64,000 bases of DNA, taken from contig OZ076409.1 of the NCBI GenBank assembly GCA_964187785.1, forward strand, positions 57,414,001 to 57,478,000, in the 5' to 3' direction. The first letter of the stretch is position 1. Every line of letters starts with the position of its first letter. This document shows positions 1 to 33,300 of the stretch, one piece after another. A program made the translations under genes and the position numbers. The stretch is from Amphiscolops sp. MND2022 (Eukaryota). The notes beneath the pieces are model-generated. The model ran no database searches. It was not told the DNA's origin and worked only from the letters and a program-made list of their open reading frames with translations.

Positions 1-2533
1 CACTGTAGGGACTGTAAGGGCTTCCATCCACTAGCTGCACAGTTTTGGCGCTACTACCAGTACAACTGACAAGAGCGGGCTTGGTTGAGATGGCACCCAT
101 GATGTATGACACCAAACTGATCTCAGCATCAGTTTGGCCCTGTATCCTCCCGGTCCGCTTGAGGAAGACCCGACACAGTTCGCTGTCTCGCCAGTATCGT
201 ATGAAGATGAGAACGAAGGCACCATCATTCGCAAATTCGATCGAGTACTCTCAATTGGAGTTTACTTGGGAGGCAATATCACAGATGATCTCGTGGAACA
301 TGTGATGGAACAATACCTGAAACAGAAAGACGAAGACGGTTACCACTGGATACCACCTTGAGAAGCAGAGTAGACTACTTCTAAGAAATAGTAAAAGTTT
401 ACTTACAGTCAAGCGCTCTTTGCTCCAGTTGAAATCAGTAAACAGAGCCTGGTGGTTCACGATGACCCCCACGTCACTCCAGAATAACTTCAGCACTTCA
501 AGATCGCCATACGAAGGGAGAAATCGGCCCAGTACTGACAATTGGATGCGAGCTCTGCTATCGGCCGATGAAGCCATGTAGTCCATGCCAGACATGTACT
601 CGTCATAGAAGGGAAGCTTTTGCCCGCTTTCTATCAGCTCAACATCAATAAAGTTTGGCAGCTCCAGTTCTAAATGGTAAGGGGTTAAAACCTTCCCGTC
701 CTTTCCTCGCACTTGGTGAATCTTGTTTTTAGTGACCGGATCGATTTTGTAGAGGTACTCGTACCTCCACCTTTGGTCTTTCCTCAGATGTTTTTCGGTG
801 GAGTGGTGACGCAGAATTTCCCTAGCTCCTTTCCCTTAGATGGAAATATTGGCCTTACAAACTTGGCAATAAAATTTGTATTTGTTCCACCTGGGGTCTA
901 CTGGCCCAGAGACAAAGGTTCGCGTCCACTCCATCCCCTTGAAGTACGCTTCCTTCATGATTTTGCAACTTCGGGTCACTTTTCGTCTTGCCCCTTGGGA
1001 AGCGGAACTCGTTGCTTGTCGCCCTCGCTTGCTAGTGGTTCGTTTGGAGCGTTCCTGCATTCCTTCTGCCTTCAAGGAAGCCAAAGTTTGTCCCCCGGGA
1101 CTGTCAGCGCAGTACTCGAGTGCTAGAGACCCTGAGTCCACTGGGCTATAACTTGTGCGCTTTGTGGAGGCACTTTGTGGAGGGGGAGCAATACCATCAT
1201 GACTGGGAGCTTCAAATGAGTACCCAATGCTGGAAAATTCGTCATCACTTTGTATAGCTCCGCTTGTGTCGCTAAAACGACCGGGAGTTTCGCTCCTAGT
1301 TCGCCGCTTTCCAAGCCCACTGGGTTCTGTCGAGGTCAAAGTTTGCAGGGATCCTGGTCCCAGATTCAATTCACTGGCTCTCTTAATCAGATCTTCAAGC
1401 GCACCATGAGCCGTCCGAACAGTCTCTTCTGCCACAACCTTCAGAACGCTGCTGATTTGGTCTTCTGTGAAAGCTATAACAGGGTGTCCTCTTGGAAGGC
1501 TTGAAGGTTCGACGTTGGCAAAGTACTCTTTGATTAGGGCCCGGCCACTTGACTTGAGGAAAGAGCTGTGATTAGTACCCTGTGTGACTACCGGTGCAAA
1601 GGCGCTATCTAAATCACCGGACCCAAGAGGGACCGCATGCCGCTTCAGATTCATGGCTTGACCTATAGTAGATCCGCCAGGATTCGTGGTAGACTCAACG
1701 TCAGTTTCTCGACCAAGTTCCGACTCGCTGTAAGTTGACGTTAAACAAGCAGCTGTATTGGAACGCTTGGCTCCAGGGCCAAATTGGGTTGTTCCAGTAC
1801 TAGTGGACGGAAGGTCATGGAGACCAGCTTTGGGAACCGGCAAAACTTCGAAGTTAGAAGAACTTTCCATTCTGGGCCTTTTACTAATCTCTTGGTTTGC
1901 CTTGTCACCTGCAGGGCTGGAAGCAGTTAGTGGCGGTTCGAGGAAAGTTACTATTGGATTCGGCAATTCTTGATCAGTAAAGTCAGAAAGCACGTTCAAC
2001 CCAGGAGTAACACACAGTTTTCCGCTTTCGCTCGCCTTTAGCAAAGAATTTGTCTCACTAGGTGCCCCTTGTGTGAAAGTTTCATCTCCTAGACTCATCA
2101 TCTTGCGTGCAAAATATGCTTGGACGCTCTCTTCTGAACTACTGGCGTCGGTCGCTAGCAGGTTGATTAAGGAGGGAGAGTAATCTGGCGATCCTGGCAG
2201 CTGAGATTTTGGGTCCACTTGGGTGGACGATTCTGGCGAGTTTGTCCCTTTGCAATCTTGCTCCAATGAGGCGTGAGAAGATGCTTCCTCAATTATTTCA
2301 ATCCCAGGCGTTAGCAATCTAAGCGGTCCTGGTGAAGGCGTAGTAGGACTGGTTACAGTGGTTTCTTGAGCTTCTAGACAATGAGTCTCTTCAGCGGCAG
2401 GAGGATTAGTGATCATTGGTGTTTCTCCGTTACTGTTACTCTCACTCTCAGTTCGAGTTGGTTGGCCGTTTGATTCTTTGCCTAAACGGAAAGAAATAAA
2501 TTCGGGCGACTCACTTCTTGCAAATATATCCAT
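1..2533 (-). pseudogene. Antisense cargo gene of element A: Ser/Pro-rich N-terminus, BED-like zinc finger, hAT-like domain; spliced, with in-frame stops
   Basis: ORF 836-2533 ends FYCQVCKANISI* and continues in frame as GKGAREILRHHSTEKHLRKDQRW into ORF 251-712. GT..AG intron 406-317 (90 nt). Second stop at 251-253, then EYSIEFANDGAFVLIFIRYW. Confidence 0.7.
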
Positions 2534-3697
2534 CTTGCCGCATTTTAAAACTTCCGGAAGTAAAGCTCAACTAATTCAACAGCTTTTGAAAATATTTCAC
2601 GATGGTGGAAGTAAAATTAGTCAAACCTAAACCCTGTTCAAGTTTAGTCTAGTCAAAACTCTAAAAAAACCAACCTGACGTTATTCCCATGATAGGAAAG
2701 CGGAATTCCTCAGACTCAACTATTTCGGTGAGATTTAGCTCTGTAGTCCTTTGGACTGGGGGACACAAATGTCTGTTACTTCCAAAGAGGTGAATATCCA
2801 ACTTCTTCCTTTTCCCTTCTGTAGCTGCTGCGACTCACAGGCAAGAAGTAAATCGGGGAATTCAAGTAGCAATGTAATAATTACACAATTCAATAGGAAG
2901 AAGGTGAACGCGTTGCATAAAGGCTAGACACAGAAACATATATAATGCTATATAGTATGCATTAACTTGACTTTCTTACTCTACTCGACTAAAAGGATAG
3001 TTTACCAAACGATTATTACATTATTCAAAAAAGTCGGTCATTAACTTTGTTTAAAGAGGACGTCGTGGCTTACCCATTAGTTCTTTCTCTCGTAATTATT
3101 CTTCACCTATTCTTCACACTTCCATACAATTATCTAATTAGTTTTTTACCATGAATGGAACCTGCCAGTGAAATTCACGCTCATTATTTCGCTTCCTAGT
3201 TTAGTTCATTTCATGAAAATTGCTTCGATTAGGGTTAAAACTCCATTTTCATTCATCATTTACCAAAATTTTCTTCATTTATTTATCGGAATCACCCTAA
3301 TGGTTGATTCGGTTGATGTAGCTTCGTGGACCGAAGGTCTTTGATGGTGGAAATATTTACTGACAGTTTACTTGAGTTAGCACTTAACTCACTCACTAAC
3401 TACTGTTAAGTGTTTGTGTAAACAACTTACAAGTCCCTCAAGGACCAATTAACATGAAATTTACCTCAGTTGTTACTTCTAGAAATTCCGTAAAATTACA
3501 AATATGGAATGTTTGGCAAGAATTTAGAGAAAATGAAAAACGGTTTCCCCGCTGGGGATTCCCGCGAAAAGGGTGAAACCACTAGTCCGAATAACTAGAA
3601 GAAAATCATTCAGTCAAATTTCAAAAGCCAAACCAGTTGACTACTAGCAAACCTCAAAATTGCCAAGAAAATCCTCCTTAGAAAATATAAATCTCAG

Positions 3698-4519
3698 ATG
3701 GGAACTCAATTCACAATTGATGAATTGGCCAAATGTTTGGTCAGCCCAGCCTACTTCTCTTCAGAGGAAGAGGAGGATATGGAAGTAGACATCCTGTCTG
3801 TGTCACCGCAAGGGACCGAACGTCACTTGGACGACAGTGACATAGAAGTCATCGCCTGTTATGGCCACGTGCCAATTGCCCCAACTAAACAGAATGCCAC
3901 ACGCAAGATGACTACGGACCTCTCTAGTTGCGTGGACGACGGGTTGCCCGAGTTCCCCTGGGACGACTTTTCGGACTTCTGGCCTGAAGATTTCAAAACA
4001 GCAATAGTCGAATTAGGAACTGGCCCAGACGCAATCGGCAGAGAGAACAATTGTCCAATCAACCAGTGCTCAAAGCTTGTCCCTCAGGTGGACACGCCGC
4101 TTTCTCCACCTCTGTGCGAGCAAGGGCCCAGCTATGGTCGTTATGATTACGCTGGACCCAATGTGACAGATTTTACTGTGCCCGTAAACTCTCACATTCA
4201 GGGGATTAGTGTGCGAATTGGAGCAAACTGTGGTGAACCGAACGCTGCAGCTTATGGAGATTGCATTGTGTGTGGCAGATCATACGAACAATTCCGCGAG
4301 ACTGCAGTCCTGACGTACCTTGAGTCGACTACAAGACGAGGCGAAACGCATTACGATCAACAGAGACGGAGAGATGCTTACTTAGCTGGAATGAACCAAG
4401 GGACAGTACTTTTGGTCCCTAGGGGAGTGTCGCAGGCTGCCGCCTGTGACGGGAATTATTATCAAATTCCCCAAGAATATGTAGAATCCAACCCCCCACC
4501 CGGAGTATTGCCAATTTGA
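3698..4519 (+). CDS. Small cargo ORF of element A (273 aa; acidic N-terminus, CxxC motif) overlapping the 3' LTR start
   Basis: Intact ORF. C-terminal GDCIVCGRSYE...GET...AYLAG...GVSQAAACDG aligns with GNCHWCGRTYD...GET...AYLDG...GLSQPRACVG read from elements B and C. Confidence 0.7.
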   Translation: MGTQFTIDELAKCLVSPAYFSSEEEEDMEVDILSVSPQGTERHLDDSDIEVIACYGHVPIAPTKQNATRKMTTDLSSCVDDGLPEFPWDDFSDFWPEDFKTAIVELGTGPDAIGRENNCPINQCSKLVPQVDTPLSPPLCEQGPSYGRYDYAGPNVTDFTVPVNSHIQGISVRIGANCGEPNAAAYGDCIVCGRSYEQFRETAVLTYLESTTRRGETHYDQQRRRDAYLAGMNQGTVLLVPRGVSQAAACDGNYYQIPQEYVESNPPPGVLPI

Positions 4520-6078
4520 AAGACTTACGGTAAAACAATTCATAACTATGTTTAATCTTATCCCAATAGTGCTATTTTATATTTTTACCGTGGCGGACCT
4601 GTGGTCCACACGGCTACATGTTAGTTTTCATTTTTACCTTACGGGAATATACTTAATTGATGAGTCCTGTGCCTGTTTGATTGATTAAATGAATTTGTAA
4701 TATAGTCAATTGAATGTAAAATAATGCGTACAATGCTTGCTGAATACTAGGAAACCTGTTCAAATGAACGCTTGTTGACGCCCAGCGTACGTACCGGCCT
4801 TATTTAAATAAACCAATCAGAGTGCTGTACATTCTTATCATTATTATTGCTGTAGCCACGTGGACCGAAGGTCTACCGTGGTGTTATTAGCTGCCAATTA
4901 GTCGATGCTATTATGTTTACTGTAGCCGCGCGTACTGTCAGTCCGCGACGGTTACTACTATTTAGAGCTGCAATTTAAATAAACTGATGTAGTTACTCGG
5001 ACCTTAAGTCTATTAGTACAGTAATAATGGACGATTTGTTTGTTATGATACTTGTCAGACTTGAAATATTAAAGTAAACATGTAACTATCCAAAGCAAAA
5101 TGTGCTAATTTTAGAACTAATATCACACTTACAGACCATTGGTCAATCCCTCCATTTTACCCTGATGCTATATTTAGCTGTAATTTGATGTAGTAATATT
5201 GACGTCATGTATCAAAATATAACCCGGGAGCTATTATTAGTACCATGACCAGCATAATTTTGCGGGTCATGCAGTGTGAAGTATATATAGCGGGGACCCG
5301 TAGGCCCCAGGATGATTCTTTCTGATTTCATGAAACTATCAACTATATACACTGCTGATTCAATTTGTTACGTTACGAGACTTATTGGAATAATAGACCG
5401 TTTGTCAATTCAATATTAATCTCCAAAGTTTGTTCAATGACATCAACAAGGAGACAGAATGCCAAAGAGAGACGCTCTGGGCAACTGGACATAATGTCTG
5501 ATGTAAAAAATGTTGATATAATGCTTGGAAGTTACTCTAGATGTGATGAAGAGAATAACATTAGCGAAAAAGAAGGGAATTTGGACTCAGGGTCTAGTAG
5601 ACCACAACAAAGTTCAAACGATATAGGAGAAGATTTCAGATCTTTACTTAATACCAATAGTAGGGAAAACAGCGAAATCACAATTGAGACCACTAGGTTG
5701 ATTAATGAGGAAATTTCAAATCAAATGTCTAGAAGACTCAATGAGGTCAAAACTAGCTTGAGTTCTCAAGTCCAGGAAGCTATCACAGCTGCAATAACAA
5801 GTACAGTGCTTCCGGCTATTCAAAATACGCTAGAAACGCAGGGGAGACTTGATTTCACCATGGTGGACCGAGGGTCCAACGGGCCACATCCGAGCCCAAG
5901 GCCAACGATTTCACCGTAAGGGACCGAAGGTCCAGTGGGCTACAACGGAACACCGAAGTTGGAAATGCTCAGAAATCGTGGGAAAATCGTCCCAGAACTT
6001 GCTTTACACAGGAAAATACTAGACTGAGGTCTAGAGAGGGTTCAACAGACTCTAATAATAGTGAACAAATTCACGACA
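4428..6078 (+). repeat. 3' LTR of element A (about 1.65 kb)
   Basis: Starts TGTCGCAG after the purine tract and ends ...TTCACGACA (or 2 bp later), similar to the ...ATTATCACA end of the B/C LTRs. Contains a gag-leader-like ORF (MTSTRRQNAKERRSG..., in 5365-5919) as the B/C LTRs do. The partner LTR is outside the window. Confidence 0.6.
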
Positions 6079-6640
6079 CAAGGCTTGAATCAGAACCTTT
6101 TGAGTCTGTGCGAAATCAGTTTTCATCTGCGCTGAGATTTCCTCTCTTTGGAATGCCTTCAACTCCTGATATTCTGTAAGATATTATCAGATGGACCCGG
6201 AATAGAGACGTGCTGCTCACGTATCCCGAAACTATAATCTGTAACTGATCGTTCTCAGAAAAACTAAGATTCTCCTCGCAATTCAGGATTATTACTGGTT
6301 TCCCTTTCTCATTTCTTTTAATCATCTTTTTGAGGAAGTATTTTCATTTCTCGAGATGTAAGTTGAGAGTCGCAAAAAGATCAACAAAGAGCTGAACTCT
6401 TATCAAAAAAAATATATAAATATATACATACAAATATATACACGTATTCATTTCATAGTGTCAGTTGTTCAAGACGGCGTACGCTGAATGATTTGAAGAT
6501 TGAGTCATTTCCGGATTATTCAGTTCGAAATTCGTAACATTTCATGCATAACGTCGACATTTCGATGATTTCCGCTTTTAAAGTCACTATTAGTCATCCG
6601 TTATAATCAGATCATTCTGATATGTGACCACACAACTTCA

Positions 6641-6905: not shown

Positions 6906-7131
6906 GATGCGTAATACGAGGGAGAATGCTTGCTAAGCTATTCAGACTTCTAAAGATAAAATAGGGAGTATAAATTGTGGAAGAAAATTCAGAATTTAGA
7001 CAATACAATCCCACTTCATACAATTATTTAGCATTACAGAATTGATATTGTCTCATGTTGGATGAGGGGGATAGAGATTAGATTATCGAACAACTTGCAT
7101 ATCAGCCTTGTTGGCGCTATGACATTATAGA

Positions 7132-8621
7132 TGTGATAATCCTCTTCTGTGCGATCCTCATTTATGACCACAGAGTCATTTAAATCAATGTTTTGTATGC
7201 TCAAAGGTTGCATTGGCGTTCTAAGTTCGTTTAAATTAGATGGCCTGAAAGGATTATCCTGTATCTCACATTCTTGATTTTCTGGTTCAGATGCGTTTTC
7301 TTCACCGTCTTCATTACTGGTGTATTTCGAGGTTCCTGCTTTGGCAGTGTTTTGTTCTCGATATCTTCTGTTTGGTACGGACTGTGTCCTTCTGTTATTT
7401 TTCATCTCTTTCAGTATTTTCTCTAATTTTTCATCCATTTCTTTTCTTAAGTTTGTTACTTCTTTATTCGTTTTATCTGTTATTTTTTGGGTCCAAATTT
7501 GCATTTCGTTTCCATATTGTGTTCCGCTATCTAGAGCTATTTCTTCCTCCCTAACTGAACTAACGTTTTCAAAGTTACTTAAAGTTTCAATAACAGTTTC
7601 ATTACCTTGTGATGTCTCTATTTCTGATGCGCTCAGCTCTCTCTCAAGTGAGGGTGATTGTCCTCGTCTAGATCTCCTATTTCTCTTGTTTCCCATTTTG
7701 GCCAGATTAAAATGCAATGTTGGAGAGAAGAATTTTAATTAAACTTGAGAAGCAAAGTGAAATCGGGTTGAAATGAGATTGAAGAAAATGTGCATAACGT
7801 TGAATTATCGAAGTTGAAACAAAGGTTGTGAAGATGAAAAGAGAGGTCTGATCAGTCTGGAAGTTTTCTGTTGAATGAATTTTATTGAGTTTCTTACTCT
7901 CCTTTTTGATTTGGGCTAAATTTAGCAGCATGACAACCAATTTTTGGAATGTCACGGTCACATCACGATTATGTAATTACTAAAAATAGTACCCAATCTG
8001 ATATAAAAATAGGTATGTAAGTTACATCACTTCTATAAATAGATTCCTGCATGACAAATATTTTCCTGCGTTTTGATTGGTCATCACACTAACTGTACCA
8101 ATCCGTTCATCGTTAATGGGAAAATGTGGCAACACGTAGTATGACTCATATGTAGTGCAAGTATTAATTCCAACGTATTACTGCATGCGTGATCAGATTG
8201 TTATGATGAATCATACTATCAAATGTCATGATTAAAAATATTAAAAATGTGAGGTTATACTGCAATATGCTGCAAACTTAGTAAAGCAATTCAATTCAAA
8301 TACTTAAGTCAGTATGCGTTAGTGTTACATAGAAGCCACGTATAATTTATTCTTTTCACAAGAATTCGCTTTAAACAGTATTATGCGTCAAATAAGTTAT
8401 CACCATGTAAAAAATCATTTATGAATGAGTGTTGTTTTACCAATCTAGCTAGCAACAATAGCAAACAAATTCAGACATAGCTGATAATCAAAAGTTATGT
8501 ATAAATCCATACAATATAAGTTTCAAGAAGTGATGAGTTGTCTCTGAATTCACTGCAGATGGGTGAGTCATTTGCCTTCAATGCTGCACCGCGGATCCAA
8601 CGCAAGCTCTAGGCTGCGACA
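7132..8621 (-). repeat. 3' LTR of element B
   Basis: Direct repeat of 13082-14577 with roughly 30 differences counted by eye. Confidence 0.95.
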
Positions 8622-10484
8622 GGCCAGCATTCTTGAAGTAAATGAGTGCTGCCTCGAACCCATCTAGATAGGCCCGTCATATGATGTTTCTATTTCTCAC
8701 TGTCTCGCCTGGGTATTCAGTCGTAGCTGTATAGGCCGCCAGAGCATCAAGAGCAACTTCGTCGTAAACAATTCTCGATGTCATCTTTCTTTTAGCTTGC
8801 AATTTTCCCGGCGATTTCATAGCAGACTCAGAGTTATGCTCCTGTTTTTCATTTAAATAGCTCCATAACAAAATACACTTTGTGATTTCCGTTTATGGTT
8901 ACAATCGTTTCAATTATCCCAACAAGATGAAATTTCTTTTCGCAGCTTCCATATATGGCGAATAGAAGCGTTGACTTTTCCATTCAAAGTGACAAAGGCA
9001 CACTAAATTATTATAAACAAATATGAATGAAGCTTTTCATGATGAATTTTAACAACCCGGATTTTATTTTTTGAATTTTACAAATTTTATGAAATTTTAC
9101 ATGCAATCTTAAATAAAACAACGAGTAAAATAGAAATGAAAGTTTATGGGGGCAAAGTTTCTGTATAATTGTGTATTTAAACACTACAGAGTTTCTCAAA
9201 AGTTTAGGTTCACACTCATTTACTTTCTATATCCATCTCATATTGTTCATTTCAGCATCATGATGTCAACTGAATGATACACTGTTATCTTCATAGCAAT
9301 AAAGCGATGCATGGGGTCATGAGATGCTGTTTCTTTTTAGGTCAACACCAGTTCAAGTTGTACTGCAAGATGCATTTCACTTTGCGCTTTTCTTCGAACT
9401 GCCACTAGGGGGCGACGCATCATGCGTATGTAAATGAATTCGGTTATGCTGTATTAAGTACCAATTTCGCTGGCAGGTTTGATCGGTTTCCAAATATTTC
9501 AGCCAATCAGCGCGCAGTTTTTGCGCAAATATGTTAATGTAATTTGTTGAACCGGAAGCCACGCCGCATCTTTTGTTTGTTTATCGTATCAGTTTTGGTC
9601 AGTTTCAAAGTCGTTTGTCGTCAAATTTCTCTAAATTCTTCAATTCATCAAGTTTCCATTTTTATTTTGTAATCATAGTTTGTAGTTCAGCTTTCATTTC
9701 CAATCAGCAATTTTCTTTTGAATTCGTAATTACAATTCCATTTTTATTTCTTGCTTCACTTGGTTGTTTACCAAATGGTGCGTTCGCGTTCTTCTTCCCG
9801 CAGGAAGGCAACCCCCCGCAGAAGAGAGCTGCAGTTGCTAGGAATCTCCGGTCATCCACTACTACTACATCATGCGGTAAGCTTGAATTTTGGTTGATTT
9901 TTCTGATTGACTCAGACAGTATTTTTTTTCTTTGTGACGTCACGGATTTTAAATGCAAGTTGGCCAGACTCACATTTTGGTGTCGACTATCTTTTGATTT
10001 GTCAACTTCCGGTTTCCGAGTTTTGGGCGGAAATAATATTTTTCCTGTTACTGATTTCTGTTATCGACATCAGTACAATGCAGGATTTTTGTTTCAGATT
10101 CTTCCGCAGCTCAGCCGCGAAGTAGAGTTTCTAAACCTTCTGATACCAGCAAAGCGCCCGTAACACAACAAACTGTTTCCTGGAAAAATTTTCCCAGCGG
10201 ACAATTCCGGATGATCTTCAACTTCCCCCAAGCTTGACCCCTGTTGTGAGTCCTGTGGTGCAGCGCCTGACTGAAGTCCAGGTTATCCCTGATTGCGTGG
10301 TTTCGAGTTCAAAACAGAAGAAAAAGAGTAGTGCTAGTGTCCTCTAGAACAGACATCATCTGTTCCCGCAAAGGATGGTTTTCTGATTTGTATCTATATA
10401 CTTTTTGTTTGTATTTACTATTCCATTTTAAAAGAAAAGAAGAAGATGAGAAGTATGAGGACTTGAGATTTGTTAGTCTTTGTT

Positions 10485-13400
10485 TGTAATATCTGTATGA
10501 GTCTGAAATGTTAGGGTTTGGGTAGGGTCGTAAATTGTATTTTTCACCACGTGTATTGTTAGGGTTTTTTTCTTTTTGAACCTCATCATTTTCTTGATTT
10601 TCATCTGTATTTCCTGAGGATTTTTCTGCATCAATAGTAGGGTTAGGTTGTAAGTCTTGTTGATTATCAATTGCATCAATTTCATTTTCTGCATTTTCGG
10701 TTGGGGTTTCTTCATTAGGAACTGCAGTTTGTTCTACCGGGGCTCCCCTACTGTTTTTTGAAATTTCGAGGGAATGTGGGCGGTTTATCGGTACATATTC
10801 TTGTATCTCATCTTGTTCGTTATCTGGGAGTTCTGTGTCAAATGGATCTGTACCAAAGTTTGTATCCCATGTGTGGGCATACAGATCATCGTGTGTTACT
10901 ATTATGTTGTCATCTTTTTGCCAATCTGTTTCTCCGATAAAATTATCTGCTAGTGGTGCACTAGGTGTAAATTTTCTCAAACGTATTCAGTGTAACAGTT
11001 GTGATTTGTTTGTCCCTATTCTTCGTACAATGTAGTTATTGTTAGGTAGGACATTTTTGACCCTGTAGGGATCTATCCAACGGAATTCTCGGAACGGAAT
11101 TTTCGTTGCTTGTGTATCTGCTTTTGGGTTCAGTTTGTAGCAATAGTCTGTTGTAGTAAGTGGTGCTTTTGCAAGTAGTGGTGTTGATTGTCGTGTTGGA
11201 AGATTGTGTTCTGGTTTCAGTTGCATTGATAAATGCGGAAAAGTTAATACTCCTTGTCGAATGTCGAAAATGGCATTGTTCCTTTTTAGGAAGCAAAGTC
11301 CAATTAGAGGATTGGGTAAGACTTTCATAACGATGAAATTTTCTTTGAACTTAACATCTGCCACTTCAAATGTTAGGCAGACTGTTCCGATTGGTGTTTC
11401 CAATTGTCCGTTTGCTACCATTATTTGAAAATTGGGTGCGGGACCTGTGTCTGTTATTGCTTCCGGTGCAAGGAGTTTGATTTTATTTAAATCTTGTTCC
11501 GATATTGCGCTCGTGAGAGCTCCAGTATCGACTAGACCGTCAAGTGTAAGCTTTTCAAAATCCATTGGAAAATAATACATATGGCGTTTGCTTTTTAGTG
11601 TCAGGTTGGTTGATAGAAGAAGCATTGGTATATCTATTTCTTTTATTAATTATAACATGATTTTGAATTTCATCATCTATGAGGGGTAGGTTTTGTGTTG
11701 ATGCAGGTTCGATTGGTACTTCAGATGGGTCTTGTGTTTGGAGAGGTTCGGGTAAATTTTGTGGTGAGGTTTCGTGTTCGAATTCATACTAATTGTTAGA
11801 GATTTTTTCGTTATTTTTGTTATTTTTGTCAAAAGTTGTGGTTGTATATCTATCAGGGGCGTCTCTGTATATTTCATACGAATCGTCTTCTGATTCATTT
11901 TGTTGATTTTCTTGAGTCTGAGATTCAGTGTTATGTGTGAAAGTGTTTGTTTTTATTGGGTGAGGAGTTGGATGCTGCCAGTCATCTTTCTCCTCTGGTT
12001 TTGTGGCGCGTGGCCTTATTAGTTTAAATCCTTCGATGATGAAGGTTGTTGACGGGGTGCTTTCGGGTTAATATGTTTGTTGGAGTTTTTGTAATTTTCA
12101 CTGAGTTTTTTCTGTGCTTCAGTTAGTGTCCACTTTGGGGGGTGGTTTTCCATATTTGCTCCGAAGTAGCATTGTGGTTCCTCATGTCCTGGTGCGTTAC
12201 AATGCGTACAACGCATGGCCTCAGTGTCTTCTTCCAGTTTACGACGTTTTGCTAGTTTAGCGCTGTCTGCTGCCTTGTGCCCCGTGTTTTTACAAAAACG
12301 ACAATGGTCATCTTGCAATGTTTTGTTGGGCACTATTTTTGGTGTTTGTTGCTTCTTTGTTGTTGCAGTTTTCTGCTGCGTTGGTTTGTCTTCTGCTTGT
12401 TTGTTTATTACCGCCATTTGCGTTTTAACGCCAGCGTCTTCTGATTCAAGTCCGTTTAATTCCATCTCACGTTCGAGATGTCGGATTATTTGCTCGTATG
12501 TTCCATTCTCAAGATAGGCTTGATTAATAGAACGTTTCAAATGTGGTGGCATTTTTGCATATAATAGACTTTTTATCATTTGTGATGCAATGTCACGGAA
12601 AGCTTTTTCGGCGCTTTTTTGTAATTCTTCTAGGAAGTCTGGTAGTTTCTGGCGTTCCGGGTCAAAAACCAAGCGACATATTTTCTCCTGAACACTACCA
12701 GTATATCTTCAAGTGTGGTTGTTGGTGTTCGTTGAATATTTTTGAATGTTTTCAATGCTAGTCCACGCAAATGTGCGTGAAAATGATTTATTTTCATTTC
12801 CTCAGTTAATGCGGGTTGCATTCTGAGTGTTGTGTGGAAAAGATCTTCGAAATATTCGAATTTCTCGTTCTTTTCCAATTTCCCATTGAAAGTGAGTGTA
12901 TTTTTTGGATGAAAGAGTGATGGTTGTGTGTTGCGGCTTGCTAGTTTCTCAATAGCCATTGCTATTTGATTAACGGGGTCTTGCTGAATATTGAGTGGTT
13001 AAGCAATGAGATGTTCATTGTGTGTTGTTGTTGTATTGTTTGAGCTTTGACGATGAAGAGGTTTGGTAGCTCCTGTCACCATGTGATAATCCTCTTCTGT
13101 GCGGTCCTCATTTATGACCACAGAGTCATTTAAATCAATGTTTTGTATGCTCAAAGGTTGCATTGGCGTTCTAAGTTCGTTTAAATTAGATGGCCTGAAA
13201 GGATTATCCTGTATCTCACATTCTTGATTTTCTGGTTCAGATGCGTTTTCTTCACCGTCTTCATTACTGGTGTATTTCGAGGTTCCTGCTTTGGGAGTGT
13301 TTTGTTCTCGATATCTTCTGTTTGGTACGGACTGTGTCCTTCTGTTATTTTTCATCTCTTTCAGTTTTTTCTCTAATTTTTCATCAATTGTTTTTCTTAA

Positions 13401-13650
13401 GTTTGTTACTTCTTTATTCGTTTTATCTGTTATTCTTTGGGTCCAAATTTGCATTTCGTTTTCATTTTGTGTTCCGCTATCTAGAGCTATTTCTTCGTCC
13501 CTAACTGAACTAACATTTTCAAAGTTACTTAAAGTTTCAAAAACAGTTTCATTACCTTGTGATCTCTCTATTTCTGATGCGCTCAACTCTCTCTCAAGTG
13601 AGGGTGATTGTCCTCGTCTAGATCTCCTATTTCTCTTGTTTCCCATTTTG
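10485..13650 (-). pseudogene. gag-protease-integrase C-terminus remnant of element B
   Basis: ORFs 12999-13667, 12630-12959, 12019-12672 (CRFCKNTGH, CTHCNAPGHEEPQC), 10987-11625 (GLVDTGA ... FREFRWIDPYRV) and 10309-10980, broken by stops and frameshifts. Confidence 0.9.
13065..13081 (-). promoter_or_regulatory. Primer binding site of element B
   Basis: TGGTGACAGGAGCTACC directly follows the LTR-terminal CA. The equivalent in C is at 32963-32979. It resembles tRNA-Leu-type PBS, but the tRNA is not established. Confidence 0.75.
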
Positions 13651-22865: not shown

Positions 22866-25800
22866 ATGGTTCGTTCAAGGAGCGTTTCTAACCGGCGTTC
22901 CAAGATTTCCGAGGGCAAATGGACAGCTTGAACTTCCTTGGATCAGACACCAGATACAGCAGTTACATTGACAGGTAAGCTTGGGTTTATTTTCTTTGAT
23001 TATTCATGTTGCTTTCTTGCCTTTTTGAGACGTCTCAGATTTTTAAAATACGAGTTGGCCAGACTCATCTTTCCGTTGACATATCTTTTTGATTCATCAA
23101 CTTCCTGTCTTCGAGTTTTTTGAACGGAATCACTAACTTCCTGTTCCGGTTTCTAGCATATTTCCATTCAAATTTTGTTTCAAATTCTTCCCAGCTACAC
23201 CATCAAAAAGCAACGCCAAATGTTCTAAACCACGAAAGGCTACTAGTGTCCAAAAAACTCTGTTAGAGTGCAGCTACAATCCTCGACTTTCTCTCGACGA
23301 AGATGATCTCCCTTCTGCTTTCGTTCCTCAAGTCCTGCTAGAGGTAATTTTGACGAGCTTGTGGTTGGTTTACGGGACAGCACCACTTTAGATGCAAAAT
23401 AAGCGGACGCAATTGAAGATATCCAGATCAAATCGACGTAAAAAACAACGCGCCCAAGGTAACGGGAGCTGTTAACGCTCCTGTAGACGGGGTTCCACCC
23501 GGACCATCATCACCACCAGTCACTGCTTCCAATAAATTTATTTATCGCGGGGAAAAGAGCCCTCCAACAACACAATCTGGGAATGTGCTAGCTTCAAGGA
23601 AAGGGTCTCCTTTAAAAAGGTATCTAATCAAGGAAACAGATCGTCTAAAGGAACAAGAAAAAGTCGACACTAGGGCTGCCACCCCAGAGCTGATTAAAAG
23701 CACCGAAATCCCTTCAAGCCCTCAAAGAAACTGGAGCACCCCGATTAGAGAGACTATTAGTTGAAGCAGCAGAAGAAGCCGCCACAAGTCAATTTCATCT
23801 CAGTCCCACATTGCATTGATGGTTCCCAACTCACCTGAGACTAGTGACAAAAACGGACGGAAAGCACGTCCCAAAACTGAGACTTCTGCCACGGCAAATC
23901 CACCAGATGTGATTGGGGATGATTATCAGCAACCCAGTTCAGACTCAGACAACAGCTTCTACTGAAGAAATCGTAGCTACCTCTGAGAAACCTCTCAGGA
24001 AACGCAAAACGCAGCAGAAGTGTAGTCCAGTCAGAAAACGGGCTAAGCCTCAACACATGCTGGCCGAATGGATGTACGATAAGTATCCCATCCTTGGGTT
24101 CTTTGCCACAGCGCCTTCTGACGCGGCCAGCCATCCGAACAAGTGTCGTTGTCGCAATTGATTGGTGCAACTTTCTCTGAAGACCAAAGGTCCTCTGAAA
24201 ATGTTACGACACTATCGGACTGATGCGCAATTGGTACGGGAACACAGGATCCGTGTGGAGACTCCCGAACTTGCACTATTCGATAAACAGTGTAAAGAAT
24301 TGAATGGAATTGCCTTGAAATACGCGAAGGAGAGAGCTAATCGGGAGTACCCGATTGCCCTCAAACTTGGCGATTAGTACCTTTGTGTTGATCAGCAAAC
24401 ACAGCCGGAAGGAACAGAACCAGAGAATCCTGACAAAGACACATTGTCACCCTTAACCCTCCTCAAGTTTGGGTTACGACATGGCGGACATTTGGACTCT
24501 CTGATAGCTCTCTGGCATGATCTAATCACAGAAACTAGGACTTCAGAATCCATCTCACCACATGATTGGAGGCCACACAGAATCTTGGTAGGTTGTTTTG
24601 GTAGTCGCTTTTGTTTGCAAAAATACTAGACGTTGAAGGAAATAATTTCTTTGCAGGCTCTTCTGACCCACATGTTCCACGAGCTCTTGTCGTACAGCAT
24701 CACCTCTATTGAGTCTTCAGGCAGCTACTCCCTTCAATTGGCATTCACAGTGCAAGAAACTCGGCTCTTTGTGAATATCTGGTCTGGAAATCCATTACAC
24801 AGCATGTATTTAGCCGTCCTCCCTGGCCGCCTTACCAATCAGTCTGATTTGATTCCGATTATCAGCAATTTCTTCGCCTTGCTACACTAAGAGGCGCACT
24901 TGATCTTCCTATCTGGGTTTTCCCAACGTCTTGTTTGGACGATTTCCCGGGTACTACCCTAGCAGAAAAGGATCTGCACCACGCCAAAATTTGACCCCGA
25001 GGATTTAGAAGAACTGTTATTAGTCCCCACAGTGCGCATTCTTGACAGGTTCGACTTCAGAAGTGTCCTGGAATTCCTGCTTCTTCGACTGAGATCCGCC
25101 TGTGGGAGTTCCTGGCTATCATCCCTTCCAACTTTCGAAAAGGTGTATATCTTGTATTCTGTTTTTCAAACTATTCTGTTAAAATATTTGCTTGGTGAAA
25201 AAATTACTATTTCCGTATGAAAACGGTCAGTATTTCTCCCGTCTGTAGATTTTATTCTCTCTCGTGAGATTTTCATTCTTTTTAGTAGAACAATTCTTTC
25301 TTCGCATATGACACTATGCAAATATCTCTTTGTTGCATATTTGAACTTGCGGCATAATGCAGCACAATTGGTCTTTTCAATCAATTTTTTCGTAATTGTT
25401 TCTTCTTTGCTAATGATTACGTAATTTGGTAGATTGAAAGATGAGTCACTGTACGATATTTGTTTCAATTTTCTGCACGTGAATAGGATATTTGTGTTGG
25501 ACTGCTTCGTTGATTTTTGGTACGTGAACATTTTGACTTCATGATGTTACGTAAAAGAAGTTGAATTTTTTTGTGTTGTTATAGCTGGCGTCCAATCTTG
25601 ACTATGATCTAAAACAAGCTGTGGAATTTCTCGATCAGTTAATCCAGAACTGGAAGCATGTCACATCCTATGTGCGGAACAGCAGAAGAGTAGCTGCTTA
25701 TCGCTCTCATTTTCAAGAAGTTTGTCCTCTTATTTTCTTCCTTATCGGGTATTCTGCTCCTGGTTGTTAAAAAATTTCGCGTTTCCTTTTAGCCATCTGG

Positions 25801-27192
25801 GATGGATGACATCATCATCAAGGATCGTGTGCTGGTTGTACGACTGTTTATCATTCGCCACATTCTAAGCCAGTGTTAGTATTTTTTTTCATTGTTTCGC
25901 TTCGATAGATATTACCTTAGTAAATTTCAATGCATGGCACAAAATTCCTTCTATTCTAATGGTTCCTCCATAGTGGTTTCATATCATACTTCATTGGTTT
26001 CTTCTCGTTTCACACAATTCAGCTTTCAAGGAAGTGGAAACGAGTGTAGCTGGAGGATTTTGTATCTACAACCAGTTCTGTGTTTTCGTGTACACACTGA
26101 TGCAAACCATTTTTCCTACATCCTTCCTTGGGAGCATCAACAATTGGGAGAGCTACATGCAGCTGAACATGAGTGAAAGCACCCTGCCTGTCAAAACAGT
26201 TGATGAATTTTTGCAGTACAAGAACCTCTCCGATTAGCTGTACAGGAACAAGAACCCTACCCCTCGAAAGTTTGTTGAGCAAGCTATATCTTTCTATCGT
26301 TAGTTTATAAAACTGTTGTTTTCGTGTGAAGTAACTACATCGTCATTTGCTCGTGGGCTGTCATCGTTTGACGAGGCTGGGATCCGTGATGGAGAGGAGG
26401 CACAGTACGAGGACTCTATTCAGTTCCTTGCTGGGTACCTCGTTCAACAACGATGGATATCCCCCCATACCAAACCCGTTGTGATTAGTGAGTTCTGCTC
26501 TCCCGTCACTAAAATCCGAGCCGACAAAGTCCATATTTCACAAGAATTGGTCAGCTTCATTTCCTGTTACTATGATCTTCAGTGTAGGGTTAAATTTTCC
26601 CGCATCTTTAAGATTGGCAGTGAAACTCTGAGAAGCCCTTGTTTTCCTCCCCTACACTTTACTGTATCTCTGCCTGGTTTAAAGTCTACCAAAATAGAGT
26701 TTTCTTCTTGCGTGAGACGCCTCCAGTGTTCCCTTAGTTCCATCCAAAAAGTAGAGAGACTTTTCTTGTCTCCGACTGCCCTCCCTCGCACATACGAGCT
26801 CCTTAATCAAGGGCCCGGGCTACTTTTAACGCGCAAGTTCTCAGTGTGGAATTATCTGAGTTCTACTCCATTTTTGAAAATTGGCCTGCTATCTACTTTG
26901 GAGTCCTGTTATGCCGAGAATGTTGCTGTTGACAGTCGTACTTGGATTACTGGAGAGAGAACCCAGCCTTTGTTCTAGCCGTACTAGCAGTATTGCCAGT
27001 TCTCCTGTAAAGTCTTCTTCTTTAAAGTCTTCTCCTGAGAAAACCAAGCAGCCAGCTACTACAGGTTCCGTTGTTGCCCCAGCAGTTCGCAGTTTGATTG
27101 AACTTCCTTTCCTGACTGCCTCAACTTCTACTGTTCCTTCCACTGGTGATAAGAAGAAGAACAAGAACGGAAAACCCACTGTGCCTCAGTAG
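22866..27192 (+). pseudogene. Antisense, multi-exon cargo gene of element C (BED-like finger plus hAT-like domain), decayed
   Basis: Putative ATG at 22866 with donor at 22975 (also in B: ATG 9775, donor 9877). Finger region HPNKCRCRN*LVQLSLKTKGPLKMLRHYRTDAQL. Intron 24588-24656, then ALLTHMFHE...SYSLQLAF...LFVNIW. Probable intron about 25144-25584. Ends with 26316-26978 and a Ser/Lys-rich tail. Confidence 0.65.
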
Positions 27193-27336: not shown

Positions 27337-30300
27337 ATATCGGTATGAGTCTGAGATGTTAGGATTTGGGTTGGGTTAAAAATTGTAATTTTCACAACGA
27401 GTACTAGTAGTTGGTTTTTCTTTTTGAACCTCTTCATTATCTTCTGATAATGTCGTTACTTGATTTTCATCTGTATTTTCTGGGGATTTTTTTGCGTCAA
27501 AAGTAGGGTTAGCTTGTAGGCCTTGTTGATTATCAATTGCATCAATTTCATTGCCTACACTTTCAGCTAGGGTTTCTTCATTAGGAACGGTAGTTTCTTC
27601 TACCGGGGCTCCCCACTAATTTTTGAAATTTCAAGGCTGGGTGGGTGATTTATTGGGACGTATTCTTGTATGTCATCTTGCTCATTATTAGGTAGTTCAG
27701 TATCAAACAAATTTGAACCAAAACTTGTGTCCCAAGTGTGGGCATACAAATCATCGTGTGTTACTGTTTTGTTGTCGTCTTTTTGCCAGTCTGTTTCCCT
27801 GACGAAGTTATCTGCTAGTGGCGCACTAGGTGTAAATATTTTCAAATGTATTCGGTGTAACAGTTGTGTTTTGTTTGTCCCTAGCATACGCACAATGTAG
27901 TTATTGTTAGATAGGACTTTTCCGACTTTGTAGGGACCTATCCAATGAAATTCTCCTAACGGAATTTTTGTTGCTTGTGTGTCTGCTTTTGGATTCAGTA
28001 TATAACAATAATCTGTTGTTGTAAGTGGTGCTGCTTTTGCCTTGCGGTCATAGTATGTTTTTCCTTTAGAAAATGACTGCATGATATTCTTTTTGGATTG
28101 GTCATTGAGTATCTTCATTCTGCGGTGTATTTCTTCTGCAATGTCAGTCTGTGGAGTATATCGTGGATAAGGGTTGGAGCCTAGTTTGTAGTCTAGTATG
28201 TTATGTGGTATCCTGCCGTGAATAACACGAATCGGTTCACATCCTAAACTAACATGGTACGTTGTATTATGATTAAGGACGGCTAGTGGTATGAATTTAT
28301 GCCAGTTATTGCGGAATTCACCGGTGGCTGCTTTTAGATGTGCTTTTACTGTAGCATGGGATAGATGTAACATAGACATTTTAGTTCGACACCAAGTACT
28401 GCTGCTACTTCTCGCGTAATTTGTGAGTTGAATTGTGTGCCCATATCAGTTATTATGGTTGTTGAAAAATATGTATGTTAGCACAAAATGTCCACAATGA
28501 CTCTTGCGACTGTAGGGGCTGTAATATGGGTTGTTGGGTTAGCAAACAAATATCTTGAAAAGACATCAATTGCTGTTACTATATTATCGAAACCTCCACT
28601 TGGTGTGAGATTATGTAAGATGTCCATTTGAAGTACGTCTTCTGGACCGAGCTTCCATTCTGGGCAATTGAGACGTTTTGTTTTCAATAAATCGATATTG
28701 ATTCTTTTGTTTTGGATGCACATTTGACAATTTTGTACTCAATTCTTGATGTGCTTTACTGAACACGGGTAATAGTATTTTGGTCCTTCTTCTTGGATCA
28801 TTTTTTTTATTCTTGGGTGATTTGCATTGTGTCCATGCAATGCCCGTAGGAATACTTCAATGAGCTGTTTCGGTAAGAAAATCTGATAATGGGAGCTTTG
28901 TCCAATATCATTGTAGTGTTTTCTTTTCGCGCAAGAATGTCTTGACGGATTCCAAAACGGGGTATATTTTGTAGGTAGTGTTGATAGCGATTATCGTGTG
29001 TGAATGCTGATTCGCCAAAAAATTCTCCTTCAATTTTTGCTCTGAATTTTTGGAGAACGTTTCGGAGGATCGTTTTTTTGTTCGAGTCTAATTTTTGCGT
29101 TATCACGAAAATGTCCTTCTCGGTAGTTTATTGTTCCTGCAGTGGGTTCATGAAAATTTTGTAATTCGATTAATTCGTTTTTCGGTTCGTTGTGTGTTTC
29201 TGTTTGGGCTTGCTTTCTGATTTTATCTTTTTGTTCCCAATGTGTTTGTTCATCGATTTCGTCATCTGGATAAAGGTATATTTGTTCTCCCTCTGCTATG
29301 CCGGAGGATTGTATATTAACCTCAATGGCTTTTGTTTGTATGTCGTTTCGTAGATTCCTCTCTAGTTTCTCTGTTGGATTGATTTCTGTTCGTGACAAGA
29401 AGTCTACAGCCGTGTTCATTGCTCCTGCTACATGTGCTATGACGAAATTGTACTGCAAGACATAGTTGTATGCATACCACAATTCGGGAGGAATTATTTT
29501 TGTTTGAAAAAATCTCGTAACTGCTCGGTTGTCAGTGAAAACTATTACAGGAAAAGTACTTTCCCACATTAGATGTCCAAATTCTGAGAATGCGAAGAAG
29601 ATTGCTAGAAACTCTTTTCAATTGCGTTGGGTTGAAAGATTTTGAGCCAAATGCTTTTGGGGCACATACTTTGCGTTTTGATTGTAGTTTTTGTTGAGAG
29701 TCGCCGTCAATCATAATCGCATATCCTGCAGCTGTGAAGCTTGCATCTGACATGACGATTAGTTGTTTGTCTTCGAAAGGTTCTTTGAGTACTATTTAGC
29801 AAGATTGAAGGAGGTTGTTCAATTGTCCGAAATTGCTGGTAAGCTCGTTAGAAACATAAAATTTGTTTGTTTCTTTCAGTAATTTGAAGAAAGGGGTAAG
29901 TGGTTCCGAAAGGCGCGGTATATAATTTCTGTAATGATTCAGAAAACCAATATACCTTTGAAGGCCTTTTTTGGATTTGGGGAATTTAAGTTTCGCTAGG
30001 AAGTTTTTGACTTTGTCTACTTGGGAGAAACTCCTTCAGGTGTGATCGTTCTTCCCAGGAGGTCCACTTGTTTCACACCAGAGTGACATTTTGACATTGA
30101 CAATTTCAGTCCCGCGATCCGTATACATTCAAAGACTGCTCGGATGTTTATACACAGTTGTGCGACTGTGTTTGCTGCAATTCCGATGTCGTCTACGTAT
30201 TGGCCGCACTGGTCTGCTTTGATGAGGGTGTCCAAGTATTCTCGGATGAAACTGGAGAATGCTGATAGTGATCGACTAAGGCCTTGTGCTAATCGCCTAT

Positions 30301-33300
30301 ACGCAAAAGTTCGGCAAGAAAAGTTGAAGGCCAACATTTGGATTGAAAGATAGTCTGCCATCTGAAGGCAGTGGTACGCTTGTGAACAGTCAATTTTACA
30401 AAATAATTTTTTCCTGCCGTTTGTTGGGCTGCATCGGAAAGTGTACTGACTGGGTGGTTGTTGTTTACATAGTGGTCTCATACAGGGTTGTTCATCTTGC
30501 GCAGGTCGTCTAGCAGTCGTAGTCGGCCTTTAGGGTTTCGTTGCACAAAAATAGGACTTGCGTATTTAGAGAAAAGTAGAGTTGTTATTATGCCATACTT
30601 GTGAAGTAGGGCGAGTTCTACCGTGATGTCGTCTTTTAGGTTGATTGGAGTTGGAAGGTTTTGGCTATATGATGTTCGGTCATCATTTGAGGTGAGTTTT
30701 TTTAAATCCCGGTTTGTCCCGATGTCAAACCTGCATCGGGAAAAGATATTGTGGAATTGAACCAGCAGTTCTTCCACTTTCTGTCGTTCAAAAAGTGTGA
30801 GTGTTGTGTCACTCCAATCAAAACTGTCGAAGAATGTTTTCGTGATGGTTCGTCGTCATGTGGGTTGAGTTTTTCTAGTGTTTGGAGTTCCACTAGTTCA
30901 TGAACTTTTGTTTTTAAATGGGTGTGTTTATTGTGGGGTCTCCTGGTTTTTCCGGTGTTAGAAACCAGTACAGCTCTGTTTTGTCTTCTTTGTTGTTTAC
31001 TTTAAGAAGTTCGTTGAGATATGCTTCCGTAACTTCAGTATGTTGATGCGTGATGAATTTTAGTGTTGAAAGATTAATTGGTTTGATAAATTTTAACTGT
31101 TCTGGAGTTGAAACTCGAAAGTCGTCTAGTTGTGTGTTAGTTGTGATTGTATTTGGTAGTTCTGAGAAATTACAGATTTGATATCCTACTGCGTTATTGT
31201 TGACTGTGCAGAGGGAAGAGTTAAGGAAGAGTGTGTCGTGATCTTCAAGATGCGCAGATGGCGTTACTATGCCGGTTGCATCATGATGGATTAAGTAAGG
31301 CGTTCTGCTTGCAATAAGTCTCGTTTCACCCGGTTGCAATGTGTACGTTTCTTCTGCAAGTAGTGGTGTTGATTGTCGTGTTGGGAGGTTGTGTTCGGGT
31401 TTTAATTGCATTGATAAGTGAGGAAAATTCAATACTCCTTGTCTGATGTCGAAAATGGCATCGTTCCGCTTTAAGAAACAAAATCGAATTAGAGGATCCG
31501 GTAAGACTTTCATGACGCTGAAATTTTCTTTGAACATAAAATTTGCCACTTCAAATGTGAGGCAGAATGTTCCAGTTGGTGTTTCTAATTGTCCAATTGC
31601 TACCATTTTTTGGAATTTATTACGGTCTTGTTCTGATATAGCGTTTGTGAGAGCTCCAGTATCAATTAAAGTGTAGGTTTTTCAAAATCCATTGAAAAGT
31701 AATACATATGACGTTTACATTTCAGCGTGAGGTTTGGTGATAAAAGTAGAAAAGGGATATCTGTTTCCCTGTTAATCGTAAAAGTCAGTATGTTGTGTGA
31801 AAGTATTTGTTTTTTTAAAATGAGGATTTGGATGCTGCCAGTCATCTTTCTCATCTGATTTTGTGGGGCGTGGTTTTATTAGTTTGAATCCGTCGATGAT
31901 GAAAGTTGTTGTCGGGGTGCTTTCAGGTTGATGTGTTTATTGGAATTTTTATAACATTCAATGAGTTTTTTCTGTGCTTCAGTCAGTGTCCACTTCGGGG
32001 GACGGTTTTCCATATTTGCTCCGAAGTAGCTTGCTGGTTCTTCGTGTCCTACAGCGGATAGCATCAGGGTCTTGTTCCAGCTTACGACGTTTTGCTAACT
32101 TTGCGCAGTCTGCTGCCTTGTGCCCCGTGTTTTTACCAGAACGACATTGGTTGTCTTGCATTGTGTTGTTGGGCACTGTTTTTGGTACCTGTTGTTTCTT
32201 TTGTTTTGGTGTCGAGGTTTTCTGCTGTGTTGTTTTGTCTTCTGATTATTTTTTCATTACTGTCATTTGCGTTTTGACGCCGGTGTCTTCTGATTCAAGT
32301 CCGTTTATTTCCATCTCACGTTCGAGATGTCGGACTAATTGTTCATACGTTCCGTTCTCAAGATAAGCTTGATTAATAGAACGTTTCAAGTGTGGAAGCA
32401 TTTTTGCATATTATAGACTTTCTATCATTTGTGTTGCTATGTCACCAAAGTCTTTTTCAGCCTTTTCTTGTAAATGCTCGAGGAAATGCGGTAGTCTCTA
32501 ACGTTCCGGGTCAAATACCAAGCAATGAAATCTAATCTATGTCTTGCTGACGCACTAGATTCGGGCTTAACGAATTTTCTTCGGAACACTACCAGTATAT
32601 CTTCAAGCGTAGTTGTTGGTGATCGTAGGATGTTCGTTTTCGAATGTTTTCAATTCTAATCTACGCAAATGTGCATGAAAATGATTTATTTTCACTTCCT
32701 CAGTTAATGCGGGTTGCATTCTGAGTGTTGTGAGGAAAAGATCTTCAAAACATTCAAATTTCTTGTTCTTCTCCAATTTGCCGTTAAATGTAAAGGTATT
32801 TTTCGGGTAAAAGAGTGATGATTGTGTGTTGCAGCTTGCTAGTTTCTCAATAGCTATTGCTGTTTGATTAACAGTGTCTTGCTGAATATTAAGTGGTTCA
32901 GCAATCAGATGTTCATTGTGTGTAGTTATTGTATTGTTTGAGCTTTGATGATGAAGTGGTTTGGTAGCTTCTGTCACCATGTGATATTCCTCTTCTGCGC
33001 GGTTTTCATTTATAATTACAGAATCGTTTAAATCGATGTTTTGTATATTCGAAGGTTGCATTGGCGTTCTAAGTTTATTCATATTAGATGGCCTGAAAGG
33101 ATTATCCTGTATTTCATTTTCCTGGTCTTCCGGCTGAGATGCGGTATCTTCATTGTCCCTGTTATTTGGTTTTTGAGGTTCCTACTTGAGGGGTTTTTTG
33201 TTCTTGATATCTTCTGCTCGGCACAGATTGTGCTCTCTTCTGCTATCTTTCATCTCTTTCATCTTTTTCTCCAAGTTTTTATTCTTTTCTTTCCTCAGGT

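Follow-up and report, generated by a model that had tools for sequence, protein, structure and literature searches.

An intron-bearing gene of probable hAT-transposase ancestry carried antisense in Ty3/gypsy retrotransposons of Amphiscolops sp. MND2022

How does a gene resembling a broken DNA transposase come to lie, antisense and interrupted by introns, in an LTR retrotransposon, and what might it do there? The question arises at one end of a 64,000-nucleotide stretch of the Amphiscolops sp. MND2022 genome (contig OZ076409.1, positions 57,414,001 to 57,478,000; hereafter the window), where a sequence-only reading had proposed a catalytically dead BED-finger/hAT transposase derivative, perhaps domesticated by a retrotransposon as a DNA-binding regulator or anti-silencing factor. 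Window bases 1-2533 hold the first one and a half exons, broken, of a five-exon antisense gene, here called the cargo gene, and every motif quoted in that reading was located in the window sequence, in copies A and C. Copy A lies on the minus strand in a single frame, with the ATG at 2533, CQVC at 868, HHSTEKH at 808, MFHE at 301 and YSIEF at 247. Its exon 1 (407..2533, minus strand) encodes a Ser/Pro-rich, poorly conserved N-terminus of ~520 aa followed by a zinc finger and a helical region; the finger (788..868, minus strand) has the spacing CxxC-x16-H-x5-H, correcting the 15 residues originally counted after the cysteines. Translation meets in-frame stops within the finger (836..838) and at 253-251, so that copy A is broken. 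Intron 1 (317..406, minus strand; 90 nt, GT..AG) lies between the finger exon and the MFHE exon, exon 2 (1..316, minus strand), which would encode RNase H-like strands and extends beyond the window start; the gene runs past window base 1, with three further exons there. Copy C, decayed and assigned to clade V, occupies approximately 23438..27141 on the plus strand, with MFHE at 24672, YSLQL at 24726, a 69-nt intron (24588-24656) between the finger and MFHE exons, exon 2 at ~24657-25145 and the last exon at ~25977-27141. The decayed gag-pol of element C follows on the minus strand (27600..33181), with Pfam matches to RT, RNase H and the integrase C-terminus.

The carrier is a 15-16 kb Ty3/gypsy element with the cargo antisense between pol and the 3' LTR. 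Element A measures 15.9 kb, and the window holds its 3' end, including the 3' LTR (4428..6078, plus strand), which shares 97.9% identity with its 5' counterpart, located upstream of the window; the LTRs have TG..CA ends and are flanked by the 5-bp duplication CAAGG. A purine-rich run directly before the 3' LTR (4416..4427, plus strand) is likely the polypurine tract. The elements read LTR, gag, pol, antisense cargo, sense ORF, LTR, where the sense ORF (3641..4519, plus strand, ATG at 3698) diverges from the cargo gene, ends within the 3' LTR and has a conserved CxxC; it gave no Pfam match. Assignment to Ty3/gypsy follows from the TG..CA LTRs, the target duplication, a primer-binding site and polypurine tract, and gag plus pol ordered PR-RT-RH-IN, the domain order being taken from copy C and pol alignments. 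The claim that an LTR retrotransposon, not a pair of hAT TIRs, delimits the mobile unit thus held, since LTRs form the element ends and the target duplications are 5 bp. Five scanned regions show no inverted repeat in common around the cargo, in agreement with the reported lack of TIRs flanking the gene, and short TIRs of hAT type with an 8-bp target duplication were likewise not found around the cargo in those regions.

Several further observations concern these elements and their surroundings. The sense accessory ORF is kept in all gypsy clades examined, its C-terminus being encoded by the first 90 LTR bases. The gag frame starts inside the LTR (window 5359-6179) and, in intact copies, continues through the primer-binding region, so that each 3' LTR of the carrier elements holds a gag start. 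Element B (window 7131-14577), whose two LTRs are 97.6% identical, seems to belong to C's family and to have lost most of pol and the cargo through internal deletion. Elsewhere in the window we noted a 619-aa minus-strand ORF matching 7tm_1, the rhodopsin-type receptors, with a long loop (17159-19018), a ~2.7 kb tandem duplication with copies 88-90% identical and decayed ORFs (36633-41826), and a minus-strand exon with two C2H2 fingers (~59100-59290) that resemble the KLF/Sp type. At another locus (L024, c826 flank), a 326-aa ORF that looks SET-like by eye lies beside a truncated element.

The same arrangement recurs in many other copies. A search with a 151-aa cargo piece returned 4,879 first-look candidates, a figure not to be equated with copy number, and all 150 that were scored had E<1e-72. 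Among 69 fetched copies, the sense pol ends at most 4.5 kb from the antisense cargo in 59; nine others are borne by a CACTA element (see below) and one (L058) has a short pol end only, and since the choice among search matches favoured diverse copies with long open frames, these counts describe the sample, not the genome. The antisense layout spans six clades, including clade V of copy C, whose cargo is 20-26% identical to that of A's clade; against copy c721b (L021+22), clade V cargo shows this same 20-26% identity and pol 58%. Most full-length copies have LTR pairs 95-100% identical, TG..CA ends and 5-bp duplications, and all conserved exon regions are open in 11 of the 16 LTR-paired copies checked.

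The cargo gene comprises five exons and four introns, ~1,300 codons in all, with intron lengths from 64 to 1,024 nt and all three phases present. Intron positions are fixed, and of the junctions scored for introns 1 to 4, 35/40, 38/40, 36/39 and 38/39, respectively, are GT..AG, the exceptions being mostly imprecise HMM borders, and exact loss was seen for intron 3 in three copies and for intron 4 in one. The antisense orientation may be what allows the introns to survive reverse transcription, because the packaged RNA would be the opposite strand, from which cargo introns would not be spliced; the cargo itself would be transcribed from a divergent promoter common to the sense ORF. The case also illustrates how an intron-containing gene can persist within a retroelement.

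Where did this gene come from? The proposed hAT ancestry was borne out at the level of predicted fold only. For modelling, two natural read-throughs, an N-half and a C-half (exons 3-5), were folded separately. The C-half model (pLDDT 75.5), compared by VIA with 48,161 chains, ranked Hermes first (Z 8.5, rmsd 6.2, 218 aligned, Hermes 313-609; next best Z 5.7), and Foldseek returned zero matches for this same model. For the N-half model (pLDDT 64.8, pTM 0.34), Hermes chains fill ranks 1-11 of the Foldseek list (best E 1.4e-3, prob 0.92); in the wide VIA search Hermes came only 10th, the RNase H-like sheet being common to many folds, with an alignment spanning Hermes 25-264 and including the BED finger, while the core alone superposed on Hermes 142-264 with Z 6.5 and rmsd 3.2 over 107 aligned residues. 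In the ESM Atlas, the N-half fell among DUF4371/FAM200/ZBED1/DUF659 clusters (0.92) and the C-half among FAM200-GTF2IRD2/hAT-dimer clusters (0.91), recognition being low. The BED-type assignment of the finger, also part of the sequence-only reading, gained support from the model, which aligns to Hermes from residue 25, and from near-invariant ligands in 68 copies (C 67/68, C 68/68, H 68/68, H 67/68). An RNase H-like core and helical insertion domain are present in the predicted models, with middling scores (the best Foldseek E lies above 0.001). As for the PF05699 dimerisation region, 34-48% of members among the Atlas neighbours carry it and the predicted fold reaches Hermes 609, with no Pfam match in the cargo.

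Sequence comparison was largely silent. Pfam searches of cargo pieces returned nothing above cut-off and no zf-BED, in a setting where the intact hAT of the window (57065-58699) was found directly; searches of PDB sequences gave no significant match, and cargo exon HMMs against the hATs of this genome reached at best E 0.012. In hhalign comparisons with 68 ZMYM-type and 12 resident hATs, the cargo did no better than reversed controls, with 7 of 40 shuffles reaching the score; neither ZMYM-type nor Ac-type hATs were significant, and the Buster/Charlie placement of the sequence-only reading stays a candidate, Buster/FAM200 affinities being Atlas leads only. A DUF4371 search of the genome found nothing, its controls being silent too. 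Of the 101 database homologues of the cargo, all are unnamed; a representative-protein search gave 996 matches, the best 150 of which are unnamed proteins of 127-419 aa, and a search for longer, spliced homologues scored none, which is weak evidence. In the cargo alignment used, the exon 2 rows have some 5 and 9 residues out of place at their termini. Divergent homologues also occur on short contigs (P0039, P0076, P0077, P0087, P0090, P0092); P0039, 35-44% identical to its best matches in this genome and without intron 1, hints that the family is present in another species. The window's hAT at 57065-58699 is an open 544-aa transposase frame (DUF659, PF05699) with apparent catalytic motifs and no perfect 14-bp inverted repeat within ~1.2 kb.

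This silence would fit a generic likeness, with a C2H2 finger, an RNase H-like sheet and helices in a gene that arose in a different DDE family or from a host gene with no relation to hATs; kinases, integrases and Argonaute, all RNase H-like, equal or beat Hermes for the core, and the Z of 8.5 falls in the range that the tool flags as doubtful for helical models. A generic likeness is nevertheless very improbable, as the separately modelled halves map in order to Hermes 25-264 and 313-609, the Atlas places each half with hAT families, hhalign, run without guidance on four query windows, in three of them matched strands 1-3 of exon 2 to the correct block of a hAT template 683 aa long, and exon 3 reads LLDNW where Hermes reads ILDNW. 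It is this collinear agreement of two halves with Hermes that leads us to accept a hAT origin, no single score being decisive: as judged from the models, the cargo very probably derives from a hAT transposase. The donor may have been a transposon or a domesticated host gene that already had introns.

The catalytic residues fared otherwise. Hermes requires the triad D180, D248 and E572 (as described in PMC2533014). The corresponding cargo positions were placed by strand position and spacing relative to ZMYM-type hATs, not by residue pairs, with an uncertainty of two residues for the first; the hairpin bearing this first position is five residues shorter in the cargo than in ZMYM-type hATs. In copy A (minus strand), the inferred first Asp site is Ala (232-230) and the second Gly (58-56). 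Loss of the DDE triad, as proposed, extends across the copies: Asp occupies the inferred first site in 0 of 68, the second is Gly in 67 of 67, and the third acid is not conserved, with no conserved acid in the 20 columns after LSCLC and no helix predicted there. The Ala emphasised at the first site is indeed found in A and C, yet as the family residue it was rejected, because the column is clade-specific and Glu is commonest (E39, A20, V4, Q3, I1 and T1 in 68 copies). CxxH and RW motifs, which are features of hAT transposases, were also sought: no His occurs in the five columns of the equivalent region (64 copies) and no Trp in exon 3 columns 3-11 (58 copies).

Could other conserved acids give the cargo a nuclease site, retained or rebuilt? 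The column two before the inferred first Asp site, strand 1 +3, holds Glu in 58 of 68 copies (with R9 and Q1), integrase superpositions start such that, judging from their ranges, a first Asp could fall on this position, and clades I-IV conserve a few acids elsewhere. The idea is scarcely credible, as the same column is Arg or Gln in 10 of 10 clade V copies, the second site holds Gly throughout the 67 copies, no helix is predicted to bear the third residue, and in Hermes E572A blocks every step (as described in PMC2533014). An invariant Glu as catalytic residue was accordingly rejected, since it fails in clade V. The cargo thus fails as an active hAT transposase and retains a predicted DNA-binding end. 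An absence of any RNase H/hAT fold, or an intact DDE triad in TIR-bounded copies, had been named as grounds for abandoning the original proposal; the searches turned up neither, and hAT ancestry together with loss of catalysis is, as a joint prediction, highly probable. TIR-bounded copies of the cargo do exist, but their TIRs are those of a CACTA element.

The gene is nonetheless maintained. Between cargo subfamilies, dN/dS is 0.02-0.05 in five pairs (dS 0.09-2.5; 25 pairs in total), dS is saturated in 14 of the 25 pairs at dN 0.13-0.30, and six near-identical sister pairs show omega 0.21-0.71. The cargo gene is under purifying selection, and its position, orientation, conservation and intact CCHH finger recur from copy to copy. 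Across 35 copies, the distances between cargo genes follow those between integrases (Mantel rho 0.69, against a null maximum of 0.18). In some pairs, pol dS is 0.07-0.16 yet cargo dS is saturated, which suggests that cargo cassettes have been exchanged over a common pol backbone.

The cargo has also left its retroelement. Nine copies lie without gag, pol or LTRs inside a repeat that exceeds 30 kb, has one sharply defined end and also holds an ORF resembling Tnp2 and two with weak likeness to SET. One complete copy is 38 kb long, its TIR measuring 37 bp and its target duplication being TA; the right ends of the other eight lie beyond the region read. The transposase ORF has a DUF1258 match (E 3.9e-9), and the scores for Transposase_21 and DUF4218 stay below cut-off. 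Assignment to CACTA/CMC, with TIRs, a 2-3 bp duplication and a Tnp2-type transposase, comes from this one complete copy. That copy lies at G000:C6:60038701-60078700 and contains 41-47 TTGCAAG repeats, most copies being 95-99.8% identical; further copies are L071-L082, L033/34 and L065. This carrier holds a 350-bp pol-end remnant, 73% identical to clade IV gypsy, which shows that the cargo reached CACTA via the retroelement. Two cargo variants with saturated dS sit in CACTA backbones 93-96% identical, and tip pairs of cargo show omega 0.45-0.71. Retention of the gene suggests that it is under selection within CACTA too.

What the cargo might do is hinted at by short palindromes, whose specificity to clades lends indirect support to the putative regulatory or anti-silencing role. 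The elements are strewn with clade-specific spaced palindromes, GAC-N5-GTC or GCC-N6-GGC, even within pol. In the window, 16 GAC-N5-GTC palindromes, candidate binding sites spanning 1128..5932 with no strand assigned, fall in bases 1-6078 (at 1128, 1692, 1806, 2377, 3329, 3788, 3814, 4596, 4863, 5000, 5134, 5396, 5488, 5584, 5866 and 5922), against 10 in the other 57,922 bases. Five clade I elements contain 172 in 71 kb, compared with 5-29 at other spacers, 9 in 59 kb of flanks, and 0 and 1 in two unrelated elements; they lie in LTRs, upstream of the cargo ATG (~0.8 kb), in the cargo and in gag-pol. In gag-pol of all five clade I copies and two of the three clade III copies, none of 200 synonymous shuffles matches the observed count; in the third clade III copy, 2 of 200 do. 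Clade II elements have only 1-2 GAC-N5-GTC each but 8-16 GCC-N6-GGC (reached by 0, 3 and 3 of 200 shuffles). Clade-specific enrichment was thus seen in clades I, II, III and VI, and no clear motif emerged in clades IV, V and the CACTA carriers. Mismatched palindrome pairs show no G-U bias, for which reason RNA hairpins were rejected as the cause of the motif, and this together with the exact spacing favours a DNA-binding dimer.

By analogy with Hermes, whose BED fingers are described as binding short quasi-palindromic subterminal repeats (PMC10368747), the finger helix of the cargo would read DNA. A basic residue (Arg/Lys) in this helix accompanies at least 1 GAC-N5-GTC per kb in 30 of 33 copies, against 0 of 32 with a non-basic residue (4 unscored); the three exceptions are Arg copies under 1 site per kb (L045+46, L068, L070). 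This rule is post hoc and amounts to 2-3 independent contrasts, phylogeny confounding it since pol, gag, LTR and sense ORF co-vary. An advance prediction, that elements with the helix GPKEI would be without GAC-N5-GTC, failed, as they have 28-37 per element. Helix variants of the P0045 and P0048 types were not located in the genome. With slightly better than an even chance, the two fingers of a cargo dimer recognise GAC-N5-GTC, with GCC-N6-GGC as the clade II counterpart. Should it do so, coating of LTRs and gag-pol would fairly likely favour transcription or resist silencing, because sites have been gained even inside coding sequence. The whole proposal, a transposase-derived DNA-binding self-regulator that binds the palindromes of its own elements and favours their expression, we regard as an even bet.

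The palindromes might instead be read by another factor, be it the sense-ORF product, Gag, integrase or a host protein, leaving the dead-hAT cargo to tether the integration complex, pick targets or aid nuclear entry. The motif does track element clade, where all parts co-vary, the strict helix prediction failed, the sense ORF has its conserved CxxC, and the CACTA carriers retain the cargo without a clear motif. Such a division of labour seems unlikely all the same: the cargo is the sole predicted sequence-specific DNA-binding fold of the element, the spacing and absent G-U bias speak for a DNA-binding dimer, and a helper of retro-integration would be useless to CACTA, which kept the cargo and lost gag and pol. 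Alternatively, the cargo could repress its own elements as a copy-number control, or block rival hATs as a dominant negative. A DNA-binding dead transposase is a natural inhibitor, truncated P and mariner transposases act in this way, sites occur both in the LTR and ~0.8 kb ahead of the cargo start codon, and the genome has many intact hATs. Repression is distinctly improbable, however, given that gag-pol sites beyond synonymous expectation cost the element and fit self-benefit, that the cargo is too diverged from resident hATs for HMM detection, and that the carrier families are young and abundant. Self-regulation in favour of the element remains our preferred reading. In its fullest form, a retrotransposon would have adopted a DNA-transposon enzyme as an anti-silencing factor, its helix and thousands of palindromes co-evolving by clade, with the cassette swapped between pol backbones that are nearly identical and of enough use to be captured anew by a 38-kb CACTA element with SET-like genes; this chain is possible, though short of probable.

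Set beside known systems, the cargo shares with hAT transposases (Hermes; ZMYM/P52rIPK and FAM200/GTF2IRD2 types) the predicted order of BED finger, helical region, RNase H-like sheet, helical insertion and C-terminal region. Unlike them, it lacks the inferred DDE, CxxH, RW and hAT TIRs, has a variable N-terminus of ~520 aa and four introns, and is mobile inside an LTR element. The domesticated hAT genes ZBED, FAM200, GTF2IRD2 and ZNF862 combine a decayed hAT fold with purifying selection; these are single-locus host genes, whereas the cargo is multi-copy and mobile. Closer in proposed function are Spm TnpA and other transposase-derived regulators, element-encoded or domesticated, described as having lost catalysis and being sequence-specific (bioRxiv 10.64898/2026.08.24.746577). 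The putative regulation by the cargo would likewise come from a transposase-derived protein with lost catalysis; TnpA-type regulators are portrayed in that source as arising from the element's own transposase or a low-copy host gene, whereas the cargo is a high-copy class II gene serving a class I element, and the main text of that preprint contains neither "LTR" nor "retrotransposon". VANC of VANDAL transposons offers a parallel for the motifs: subfamily-specific short motifs are described as accumulating along the element, in proposed co-evolution with an element-encoded protein (PMC5735166). Enrichment of a subfamily-specific motif along the element is likewise found in clades I, II, III and VI of the cargo elements; the VANC motifs described there are 8-9 bp, non-coding and expanded by tandem repeats, whereas the candidate sites here are dispersed spaced palindromes, also in coding sequence. 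In location the nearest counterpart is TRP28, an antisense ORF of plant Retand/Grande elements, which lies between pol and the 3' LTR lineage-wide, has been proposed to bind DNA and regulate, and is described as plant-limited and of unknown origin (PMC11963269, PMC7264820). The cargo also sits antisense between pol and the 3' LTR; unlike TRP28, it has a traceable predicted hAT fold and spliceosomal introns, and a Pfam search found no match to PF04195.

Within open-access text of the literature, we found no report of an LTR element that carries an accessory gene of hAT derivation. Element-encoded regulators with known targets, TnpA and VANC, are described for plant DNA transposons (bioRxiv 10.64898/2026.08.24.746577, PMC5735166), and the antisense extra ORFs of LTR elements are presented as of unknown origin and function (PMC7264820, PMC11963269). 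Here, a traceable hAT origin and cross-class transfer come together with candidate target sites that differ by clade, and this origin and these sites make the role of an accessory gene directly testable with natural variants. By analogy, the cargo would act like TnpA or VANC and sits like TRP28, and it belongs to none of them.
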